IMG/VR virus record: IMGVR_UViG_3300047510_001751
Coordinates: 32,001 to 96,000 of that record
Origin: a virus
Reading direction: 5' to 3' (one strand)
Length of the DNA: 64,000 nucleotides
In this document: piece after piece, positions 23,669-26,208 of the stretch
Position numbering within the stretch: the stretch's first letter is position 1
How the letters are laid out: each line of letters opens with the position of its first letter
The notes under the pieces: model-generated
What the model saw: only the letters and a program-made list of their open reading frames with translations
Told to the model about the DNA's origin: nothing
Database searches by the model: none
Position numbers and translations under genes: made by a program

Positions 23669-24031
23669 TTACATACGAGAGTAACAGACACGAACAACCC
23701 CTGATCCTGGAGAAGCGATTTTAGTAAACGCTCCATAAGATAGATCAAGAGATCGTCCACCCACAAATGGTCCACGATCATTCACACGAACAATGACAGA
23801 TTTGCCATTCGATTGGTTAGTCACCCGCAACCTAGTTCCGAAAGGAAGGCTTCTGTGTGCTGTTGAATGACCGTAAGCATTATATCTTTCTCCGTTAGCG
23901 GTGGTTAAACCGTGATATCCATCACCGACTCCATAATGTGAGGCGAGGGAACATCCGCTCGCTGCCTTTGCTTGAAGGGGTGCCAGTCCTACAGTGGCAA
24001 TGGCTAGAATTGAAAGTGTTTTAAAAAGCAT
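23669..24031 (-). CDS. rlpA: RlpA-like lytic transglycosylase (double-psi beta-barrel)
   Basis: Signal peptide; ASHYG, TANGERY, TAHRSLPFGTRLRVTN, VRVNDRGPF, LDLSYGA. Confidence 0.92.
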   Translation of the reverse strand: MLFKTLSILAIATVGLAPLQAKAASGCSLASHYGVGDGYHGLTTANGERYNAYGHSTAHRSLPFGTRLRVTNQSNGKSVIVRVNDRGPFVGGRSLDLSYGAFTKIASPGSGVVRVCYSRM

Positions 24032-24238: not shown

Positions 24239-24430
24239 ATGCCGAGAGAGTGGAACACTCCGATTAGAGAGCCATGGAATGCTCCTATTCATAACACATT
24301 AAAAGCAATAGATAACCACACTCAAGAATACTTTAAGAGTGGCGATAAATGGCATCTACAAAAAGCAGATCAACTTAGGCAATATTTACACGAGTTAAAA
24401 ACCTGGATACATCATCAAGAAGGAAGATGA
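24239..24430 (+). CDS. Conserved cyanophage hypothetical protein
   Basis: MPREWNTP.REPWNAPIH; ATAAATA upstream. Confidence 0.7.
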   Translation: MPREWNTPIREPWNAPIHNTLKAIDNHTQEYFKSGDKWHLQKADQLRQYLHELKTWIHHQEGR

Positions 24431-24666
24431 AATTTAATTTAACCAAACTTATTTTTATAGTTTGTTTTTCTACTGTTGGATTTGTTGGGTTAAATTTCAT
24501 TGCCTGTAATTTCATGTTACCAGGATCAATCATTAGTGCTAATGTTCTTGGGGGATTAAAAAACCCCCCTCCTTTAGATTGTAAGGAATCTGAAAGAAGA
24601 GGGTATGAAACTTTATTAACTATTCTCACTACAGTAATTGCTCTACGAGCTAAGGTAGAAGATTAA
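24427..24666 (+). CDS. Small membrane protein
   Basis: N-terminal TM and hydrophobic C-terminus; ATGA coupling. Confidence 0.6.
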   Translation: MKFNLTKLIFIVCFSTVGFVGLNFIACNFMLPGSIISANVLGGLKNPPPLDCKESERRGYETLLTILTTVIALRAKVED

Positions 24667-25145
24667 GAAACCCAGAGTTTACCCTCTGCCTTTCTTCTTC
24701 TAAGTAGTCCTGCCTCTACATTACTACCAGGATTACGATACATCTCTAGAACTTTAGGAACGTCGTTCCATTTTTGATCTTTTAAGATACGAGTGATAGT
24801 ATTAAAATTCCCAGAACCATAGAAATTAGCGCCGAGATTATAAGCAAAAGATAATAATGCTCCACGTTGATTGTCATTCATCTCACTCCAATAAGGAATT
24901 TTTTGTAGGGCAGGTAAGAATCTATGCTCAACATCATACATCAGATATTCATCTGCTTGCTGTTGAGTAATAAACTGACCTAACATAAAGGTAGATCCAT
25001 CTGGTCTACGAGTGCTTCCCCATCCTATTGTAATAGGAGCAGCACCTGTTTTGGGATCTGGGTATGCTTTTAAATGACAACCTTCAAACTCTTTGATTAG
25101 TTCTAGCCCTCGATGAGGAATAGAACTTACTACTTTTTTACGGCG
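24663..25145 (-). CDS. GH24 phage lysozyme domain without its own start codon (frameshift-accessed)
   Basis: Frame open 25145-24663: LIKEFEGCHLKAYPDP..ITIGWGST, ALLSFAYNLG, GLLRRRKAEGKLW; first ATG (24986) lies after the catalytic E/D/T. Confidence 0.85.
   Translation of the reverse strand, partial: RRKKVVSSIPHRGLELIKEFEGCHLKAYPDPKTGAAPITIGWGSTRRPDGSTFMLGQFITQQQADEYLMYDVEHRFLPALQKIPYWSEMNDNQRGALLSFAYNLGANFYGSGNFNTITRILKDQKWNDVPKVLEMYRNPGSNVEAGLLRRRKAEGKLWVS
25099..25139 (-). other. Candidate -1 programmed ribosomal frameshift signal
   Basis: A_AAA_AAG (25139-25133), 5-nt spacer, hairpin AGTTCTA...TAGAACT. Confidence 0.8.
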
Positions 25146-25834
25146 TCAAAAACTCTACCCCAACCATCATTGCCTTTTGGGCACCATCTACGTGCCAACT
25201 CAGATCGTTTGTATACCGCTCCTCTACCATTGGTAACAGGACCCGTATAGCCATCGTTAAGGCTTCCATACGGGTCATGAACGATGTAGTCTCCAGCGGG
25301 GGTCTTCCCAATCACAACACACATGTGGCCTCCTGTAGGAGCACTGAGAGGTCCCCTGTGAAGGATGCCAATTACCATTGGACGATTTGCTGCTAATTCT
25401 TTATCGAGATCAGCAAATGACAAATCATATTTGAATGCAGATTTAATACCATACCCCATCAAGACACGAGTTTGTACAGTATGATCGGTTGTATCCCCAG
25501 CAGCAAATACTTTCTGAACATAAGCATCGTCACCTTTAGGACCTTTCAGTGTGCCTGGTTTAAAATATTCAAGACACATAGCACAAGCAGAACTATTACA
25601 AGTTCGTTGAGCATCACGATAATTATCTGTTTGAGGGAACCAAGGGAAGTTTTCAAGAATATTAGTTGCTTGTTTTTGAACTGATGTTCTGTATGTTTTA
25701 ACCCAACCAGAAGTATCTTCTAATTCTTCTGGGGCTGATTTTTCCAAAGCATGAAAAAACATTTCAACTGCTTTTACGTGATTGGGATTCTTCTCATCAA
25801 AATGTTTAAAGAAGTTATGTAAATTAATTTTCAT
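25130..25834 (-). CDS. Peptidase C39-like protein
   Basis: QTDN...TCNSSACAM (Cys), GGHMCVVIG (His), IVHDPYG (Asp). Confidence 0.88.
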   Translation of the reverse strand: MKINLHNFFKHFDEKNPNHVKAVEMFFHALEKSAPEELEDTSGWVKTYRTSVQKQATNILENFPWFPQTDNYRDAQRTCNSSACAMCLEYFKPGTLKGPKGDDAYVQKVFAAGDTTDHTVQTRVLMGYGIKSAFKYDLSFADLDKELAANRPMVIGILHRGPLSAPTGGHMCVVIGKTPAGDYIVHDPYGSLNDGYTGPVTNGRGAVYKRSELARRWCPKGNDGWGRVFDAVKK

Positions 25835-26169: not shown

Positions 26170-26208
26170 AATAAAAAACCCCCATATAGGAGGTATTTAT
26201 CTATTCAA

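Follow-up and report, generated by a model that had tools for sequence, protein, structure and literature searches.

In Escherichia coli, the dnaX gene (tau/gamma) delivers two products per message from the slippery heptamer A_AAA_AAG, with a stem-loop located ~5–6 nt downstream. The OrfA/OrfAB genes of IS3-family elements (IS911, IS150) likewise use A_AAA_AAG together with a downstream structure, and yield the upstream product alone as well as its fusion with a start-less, catalytic downstream domain. In phages, the G/GT shifts of the tail assembly chaperones are −1 shifts conserved family-wide, which yield a shorter and a longer protein, presumably at a defined ratio. In addition, one lysin locus is known to give rise to two polypeptides with a common domain, i.e., LysA of mycobacteriophage Ms6, via internal in-frame initiation (PMC3111421). 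Here, we compare with these systems a peptidase–lysozyme locus (the lysin locus) of the virus record IMGVR_UViG_3300047510_001751 (190,248 bp, 98% complete), in which a −1 frameshift on the same heptamer is predicted to join the two coding frames. The locus lies in bases 32001–96000 of that record, and this 64,000-nt stretch, analysed as a whole, is referred to as the window. Across the locus, the T4-like cyanophage S-PM2 is its nearest cultured relative (72% nucleotide identity). T4-like cyanophages are major agents of picocyanobacterial mortality, and their lysis genes are poorly defined.

A first-pass annotation of the window had proposed that the peptidase frame, whose last codons are GTA AAA AAG TAG, is fused to a lysozyme by slippage directly before its stop. 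The heptamer, the TAG, the upstream TGA, the 5-nt spacer and the hairpin on which this proposal was built were each found in place on the minus-strand sequence, and the predicted product sizes of 234 and 390 amino acids (aa) are arithmetically correct. All features of the lysin locus lie on the minus strand, as follows.

25130–25834, minus strand: peptidase open reading frame (ORF) in the zero frame, 234 aa, with an N-terminal helical module and a papain-like (Peptidase_C39_2) domain, ending in ..AVKK-TAG
25146–25148, minus strand: TGA in the −1 frame, two codons 5′ of the heptamer, the upstream bound of the shift window
25133–25139, minus strand: slippery heptamer A_AAA_AAG in the zero frame, read from the sequence
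25130–25132, minus strand: zero-frame stop TAG abutting the heptamer, read from the sequence
25099–25127, minus strand: hairpin AGTTCTA-T-TCCTC-ATC-GAGGG-C-TAGAACT, a putative stimulator, after a 5-nt spacer
24663–25139, minus strand: −1 frame coding part, comprising the linker VVSSIPHR and a complete GH24 lysozyme domain, with TAA at 24665–24663
24663–25834, minus strand: predicted trans-frame product of 390 aa (peptidase–linker–lysozyme), collinear with natural in-frame fusions of 398–405 aa

After the TGA, the −1 frame is open for 160 codons as far as its TAA, and its first ATG/GTG/TTG occurs at 24986, 53 codons in and past the LIKEFEG motif, just as had been noted before. The catalytic Glu codon (in the FEG of LIKEFEG) is at 25085–25083. 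The 107-aa ORF that starts at 24986 lacks the catalytic N-terminal part of the domain, because both this codon and the start of the domain precede it. The Phage_lysozyme profile (PF00959), in contrast, is complete on the −1 frame, where residues 18–154 match profile positions 1–125 of 125 with an E-value of 2.3e-23 and a score of 83.3 bits against a curated cut-off of 22.3, which places the domain in GH24. In the window, no promoter-like site was found between the peptidase frame and the lysozyme frame. The string AAAAAAG occurs 99 times in the 190-kb genome and is by itself common; therefore, the significance of this copy rests on its context and conservation rather than on the motif.

We consider it very probable that tandem −1 slippage on A_AAA_AAG joins the peptidase and lysozyme frames as one recoded gene with products of 234 aa and 390 aa. 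Ribosomes translating the peptidase would reach A_AAA_AAG, where two tRNA-Lys(UUU) would re-pair one base back, aided by the hairpin 5 nt downstream and probably also by the abutting stop codon. Ribosomes that do not slip would stop at the TAG and release the 234-aa peptidase, whereas those that slip would go on in the −1 frame to make the 390-aa protein, in which the N-terminal module and the papain-like peptidase are followed by the linker and the GH24 muramidase. The lysozyme, being without a start codon of its own, would be made only through the shift.

While similar in heptamer and downstream structure, we note several differences between the lysin locus and the known systems. The dnaX shift runs into a stop and gives the shorter product, whereas the lysin shift would add a whole catalytic domain; dnaX also has an upstream Shine–Dalgarno stimulator, and at the lysin locus a zero-frame stop abuts the heptamer. 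The IS3-family genes encode a transposase rather than a lysin, and the frame overlap at the lysin locus (10–22 nt) is much shorter than theirs, with the stop directly after the slip site. The tail chaperone shifts serve virion assembly and not cell-wall hydrolysis, and their sites are often without a strong covarying hairpin. In Ms6 LysA, a second start codon lies in the same frame and no recoding is involved. Finally, the Kyanoviridae also have peptidase–lysozymes with the same domains fused in frame (ACG-2014f gp211, PHROG 3617), which do not need recoding; ACG-2014f has the same domain order as the window and a comparable linker, whereas in S-CREM1 the order is reversed.

To survey the locus, IMG/VR was searched with the window peptidase and its S-CAM7 homologue, and annotated phage records were added, giving 112 loci that were sorted by scripted junction analysis (survey loci are cited below by L-number).

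A_AAA_AAG arrangement: 62 loci with 51 distinct junctions, including S-PM2
T-run arrangement (S-CAM7 type): 3 loci
In-frame fusion: 9 loci
In-frame fusion with reverse domain order (S-CREM1): 1 locus
Split genes: 4 loci
No adjacent lysozyme: 23 loci

The A_AAA_AAG loci share 70–88% peptidase identity, and in every one of the 62 the lysozyme frame is −1 relative to a zero-frame heptamer. The heptamer is preceded without exception by an NNA codon (GCA in 25, GTA in 22, GAA in 1 and ACA in 1), although the residue varies between A, V, E and T, and the two lysines of the heptamer are always AAA AAG, a dicodon used for only 15% of the Lys-Lys pairs in the genome of the window. The invariant NNA and AAA AAG point to a synonymous constraint. 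In the 49 distinct junctions scored for it, the zero-frame stop follows the heptamer after 0 codons (42) or 1 codon (7), and a −1 frame stop is present 1–4 codons 5′ of the heptamer in 58 of 58 loci scored. The shift window is merely 10–22 nt, and a frame change is possible only at the heptamer, because the −1 stop upstream and the zero-frame stop downstream bound it. The distance from the heptamer to LIKEFEG falls into eleven length classes between 48 and 87 nt, all multiples of three and all stop-free, and 33 of the 51 junctions contain no ATG/GTG/TTG before the lysozyme domain. Thus, the arrangement predicted for the window (heptamer, adjacent stop, −1 relation and, as described below, compensatory stem changes) is conserved in 51 distinct junctions.

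S-PM2 itself (L001, NC_006820) has the junction GCA AAA AAG TAA, the same arrangement as in the window, with the linker VTSSTSR. Its RefSeq gene S-PM2p157 (2330–2548), a "putative lysin," is a 72-aa fragment that begins at an internal ATG and lacks the catalytic Glu, and the 270 nt upstream of it, which code for the rest of the domain, are unannotated. The lysin is annotated as a catalytically headless fragment because the start of the lysozyme lies in the shifted frame. The candidate recoding site is therefore widespread in the Kyanoviridae and, judged from these sequences, mis-annotated in reference genomes.

The junction is a homopolymer run, and the RefSeq annotation of S-PM2 and S-CAM7 reduces the lysozyme to a short remnant, as might be expected if an assembly error or a recent frameshifted pseudogene had produced the arrangement. 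The same A6G is present, however, in 62 independent assemblies and isolates, and the lysozyme domain across the relatives is intact, conserved (57–83% identity) and free of stops. Both an assembly error in the homopolymer and a pseudogene were rejected on this ground, and the chance that artefact or decay explains the locus is negligible in our estimate.

The second line of evidence for recoding is the structure 3′ of the heptamer. The hairpin in the window has 7 + 5 bp (12 bp), a 1 × 1 mismatch and a 3-nt loop, with ΔG of −13.5 kcal/mol and z = −2.7; 2 of 200 dinucleotide shuffles fold equally well. For the relatives, 49 distinct downstream segments were first scored, and 48 of them contain a hairpin whose stem begins 0–7 nt after the heptamer, with a median ΔG of −16.4 kcal/mol and a median z of −4.2. 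The 3′ arm codes for a conserved G-(V/I/L)-x-L directly before LIKEFEG (G-L-E-L in the window), and the 5′ arm sits in a variable linker and changes to match the 3′ arm. Examples of such arm pairs are AGTTCTA/TAGAACT, AATCAACAYC/GGTGTTGATT, GCCAACTAA/TTAGTTGGC and GATTCCA/TGGAATC. An Rfam scan of the junction gave no family match.

Stem pairs could not be brought into register in a mixed-clade MAFFT alignment, since the clades differ in where the stem lies and in how long its loop is. Covariation was instead assessed within one clade, relative to the coding 3′ arm, and from the energies of cross-partner duplexes. With the 3′ arm as anchor, up to six Watson–Crick or G-U pair types were found at homologous wobble positions. 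The median duplex energy was −19.0 kcal/mol for a locus's own arms vs. −7.7 kcal/mol for cross-locus arms, which were drawn from loci with different 3′ arms (Mann–Whitney p = 3e-24). In a single clade of 14 sequences, 99.5% of cells pair, whereas slid registers pair in only 29–48%, and four pairs are changed on both sides, a result matched by 0 of 500 shuffles. These covariation statistics are inflated by relatedness; the replacement of arms between clades is nevertheless unambiguous. The slippery heptamer, the covarying 3′ structure and the conserved −1 ORF are features that the locus shares with canonical bacterial −1 cassettes.

A different route to the same junction is found in S-CAM7 (L086, NC_031927, 1430–1500) and two metagenomic relatives (L088, L089), which carry GTT TTT TTT CCA CAG TAG with the lysozyme in the −1 frame. 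Here, T8 can be read as T_TTT_TTT, followed after a 5-nt spacer by a hairpin of 8 bp or more, GTAGAACC/GGTTCTAC. In the peptidase tree, these three loci are nested among the in-frame fusions. The annotated "lysin" of S-CAM7, gp246, is a 90-aa fragment, shortened like that of S-PM2. The T8 run with its hairpin would be a second solution to the same −1 junction, built on another slippery sequence.

The loci that lack the frameshifted lysozyme serve as natural controls. The heptamer is present in 0 of the 23 loci without an adjacent lysozyme, where the peptidase ends in GRVFQTP, GRVFQP, GRVFS, GRIFN or GRIFDVK and is followed by tRNA genes or other DNA; in the peptidase tree, such lineages have at least three separate origins within the frameshift clade. 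The heptamer is also absent from 8 of the 9 in-frame fusions, the exception being ACG-2014f. The eight metagenomic in-frame fusions (L090–L098) code the region as GAA AAG AAG, GAG AAG CAA or GAG CAG AAG, and in the seven of them that were folded, no significant structure was found (z −2.0 to +1.2). The idea that the two lysines are simply the C-terminus of the peptidase was discarded on these grounds, as lysozyme-less peptidases end otherwise and most in-frame fusions use non-slippery codons.

Several of these variants have features of their own. In ACG-2014f (L085, NC_026927, ~1465–1530), an in-frame GCA AAA AAG is retained within the fusion, with a GGAGGG..CCCTCC hairpin 5 nt after the heptamer, and its −1 frame reads AAA AAA GTC TGA. 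By analogy with dnaX, a shift here may yield a peptidase-only product, the inverse of the window arrangement. In the lysozyme-less loci L010, L011, L017, L041 and others, a conserved promoter-like element, TTGACA..TAAGAT/TAACAT, and tRNA genes lie 3′ of the peptidase, and a tRNA cluster appears to have replaced the lysozyme in these lineages. In S-CREM1 (L087, 1480–2661), the two domains are fused in opposite order.

Several points weigh against frameshifting as the full account of the locus. First, six junctions (S-SRM01, L018, L026/27, L046 and L058) have an ATG or GTG over the zero-frame stop, and coupled reinitiation could therefore contribute there. Second, L036 and L051 lack a heptamer and have simply two overlapping genes, so that a free-standing lysozyme can be viable. 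Third, the downstream segment of S-SRM01 folds to no hairpin, the sole exception among the 49. Fourth, the G-rich stretch that might act as a 5′ Shine–Dalgarno-like stimulator (the GWGR codons, ~17 nt upstream of the heptamer) is constrained by the protein. Fifth, the loci are related, so that the counts are not independent events. Sixth, the basis for the tRNA argument given below is one representative Synechococcus genome, which is not a proven host of the phage. Finally, an extra A introduced by RNA polymerase would give the identical protein (V-K-K-V..).

This last point is what transcriptional slippage would predict: if the polymerase adds an A to A6, some mRNAs carry A7 and the fusion is in frame. 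The T8 run of S-CAM7 is also nearer to the lengths at which bacterial polymerases slip. A6, however, is short, as efficient bacterial transcriptional slippage needs runs of about nine or more, and the run never departs from A6 plus a following G, placed as X_XXY_YYZ in the zero frame. Moreover, a covarying hairpin 2–7 nt downstream is the hallmark of ribosomal shifts, and we know of no role for one in polymerase slippage. We therefore regard a transcriptional origin of the fusion as highly improbable.

The six junctions with a start codon over the stop, and the coupled separate genes of L036 and L051, would instead favour a lysozyme that is translated independently, by termination–reinitiation or from a non-canonical start such as the ATT in the I-P motif, with the hairpin serving mRNA stability or coupling and the two lysines being incidental. 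Near-cognate ATT, ATC, ATA or CTG codons do occur in the linker of 45 of 51 junctions. No start is conserved in position, however, and the ATT at the I-P motif was dismissed as a conserved start, since the motif is missing in several clades (L005, L019, L026 and L082, for example, are without I-P/ATT). A heptamer would also be superfluous for reinitiation; in the survey, it nevertheless accompanies the out-of-frame lysozyme exactly and vanishes both with the loss of the lysozyme and in 8 of 9 in-frame fusions. Nor would independent genes force linker indels to multiples of three or hold the −1 relation in 62 of 62 loci, and among split relatives the frames are related differently (DSL-LC02, rel 1). 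That the lysozyme is translated independently is therefore very unlikely as the general explanation.

The first-pass annotation had allowed that in-frame homologues, or homologues with their own start, would speak against the shift. Most relatives are of neither kind, and a few do have their own ATG/GTG or are split; within the peptidase–lysozyme family, frameshifting appears to be the dominant solution but not the sole one. The fusion of the two frames is supported by conservation, covariation and the controls, and its ribosomal nature is what we infer from them.

The domains of the predicted product are consistent with a single enzyme. The window peptidase matches Pfam Peptidase_C39_2 (E-value 1.5e-10, 42.3 bits, cut-off 24), and the motifs CNSS.CAM and GGHM are conserved in the consensus; a search of the peptidase sequence against the PDB gave nothing significant. 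On the PHROG 3617 profile (405 positions), the window peptidase aligns at 1–234 and the lysozyme frame at 244–404. In ACG-2014f (gp211) and in seven metagenomic homologues, one ORF of 398–405 aa holds both domains in this order, joined by a comparable linker. One of the natural in-frame homologues, L091, was modelled with AlphaFold as a stand-in for the trans-frame protein of the window, giving a mean pLDDT of 77 with a helical module at the N-terminus, a helical domain at the C-terminus and an alpha/beta domain between them. In Foldseek searches, the C-terminal domain resembles GH24 muramidases and endolysins (6et6, 9kbq and P22 lysozyme 2anv; E-values ~1e-8, TMt up to 0.90), and the middle domain, where the model is in parts of low confidence, gave weak matches to staphopain, the PCAT C39 domain and Alr0975 (E-values ~3e-3).

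No Pfam family matches the N-terminal module (~60 aa, IDLHNFFK..NPNH), which resembles a shared unit for targeting or partner binding. In the split loci DSL-LC03/DSL-LC02 (L003/L004), the lysozyme has a separate copy of this module, together with a linker rich in Ala and Pro, suggesting that one role of the fusion is to supply this module. The likely purpose of the shift would be that the muramidase gains the N-terminal module and the peptidase, and that the proportion of the two enzymes is set. The first-pass reading of the locus as two lysins from one gene presupposes a papain-like peptidase that acts on peptidoglycan, an activity we infer.

The decoding environment resembles that of dnaX, which likewise is read in a host with only tRNA-Lys(UUU). 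The phage encodes 12 tRNAs and no tRNA-Lys, and the representative genome of Synechococcus MIT S9451 encodes 34 class-I tRNAs, including one tRNA-Lys(UUU) and no CUU isoacceptor. It is sole reliance on tRNA-Lys(UUU) that renders A_AAA_AAG prone to shifting in E. coli. A more far-reaching proposal, which we put forward tentatively and hold to be unlikely, is that the cassette goes beyond a fixed-ratio device: governed by a single tRNA-Lys(UUU) and a tunable hairpin, the muramidase share would track the host translational state and help to time or grade lysis, and the family would have switched repeatedly between in-frame, frameshifted, inverse (ACG-2014f) and split forms to reset the ratio.

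In the full-text literature searched, with the S-PM2 genome paper and the phi-vML3 paper outside its scope, no account was found of a frameshifted cyanophage lysin or, more generally, of a frameshifted endolysin, in agreement with the first-pass annotation, which knew of none for a cyanophage endolysin. The portion of a 2016 recoding review that was searched does not mention endolysin, lysozyme or cyanophage. The phi-vML3 "frameshift lysin" cited by PRFect is described in another source as overlapping lysin and holin-like genes. The lysin junction is very probably a classical −1 recoding site in a new gene context, and with it, as far as this literature goes, cell-wall hydrolases would join the short list of phage functions with conserved −1 frameshifting. 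For the model phage S-PM2, for S-CAM7 and for numerous uncultured relatives, this identifies a likely bifunctional lysin. The natural in-frame, frameshifted and split versions of one enzyme offer a system for asking why phages recode rather than fuse, a question that can be tested directly in a culturable phage–host pair.

The gene order around the locus is the same in S-PM2 and the window, i.e., nrdB, a RusA-like gene, the peptidase, the lysin and an RlpA-like lipoprotein gene. The start codon of the peptidase (ATG) and the stop codon of the RusA-like resolvase gene before it (TGA) overlap as ATGA (25831–25834, minus strand), and the lysin is therefore probably co-translated with an unrelated DNA-metabolism gene. 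Farther upstream of the peptidase, a terminator-like hairpin is present at 26194–26178. On the other side, an RlpA/DPBB-like lipoprotein gene (PHROG 7930; 23669–24031, minus strand) adjoins the lysin locus, which suggests that the two form a small cell-wall module. Between the lysozyme and the RlpA-like gene lie two small convergent ORFs of 63 and 79 aa (24239–24666, plus strand), neither of which has a PHROG match. The 79-aa ORF on the opposite strand is hydrophobic and has a counterpart in S-PM2, and the two small ORFs could encode lysis accessory or membrane proteins.

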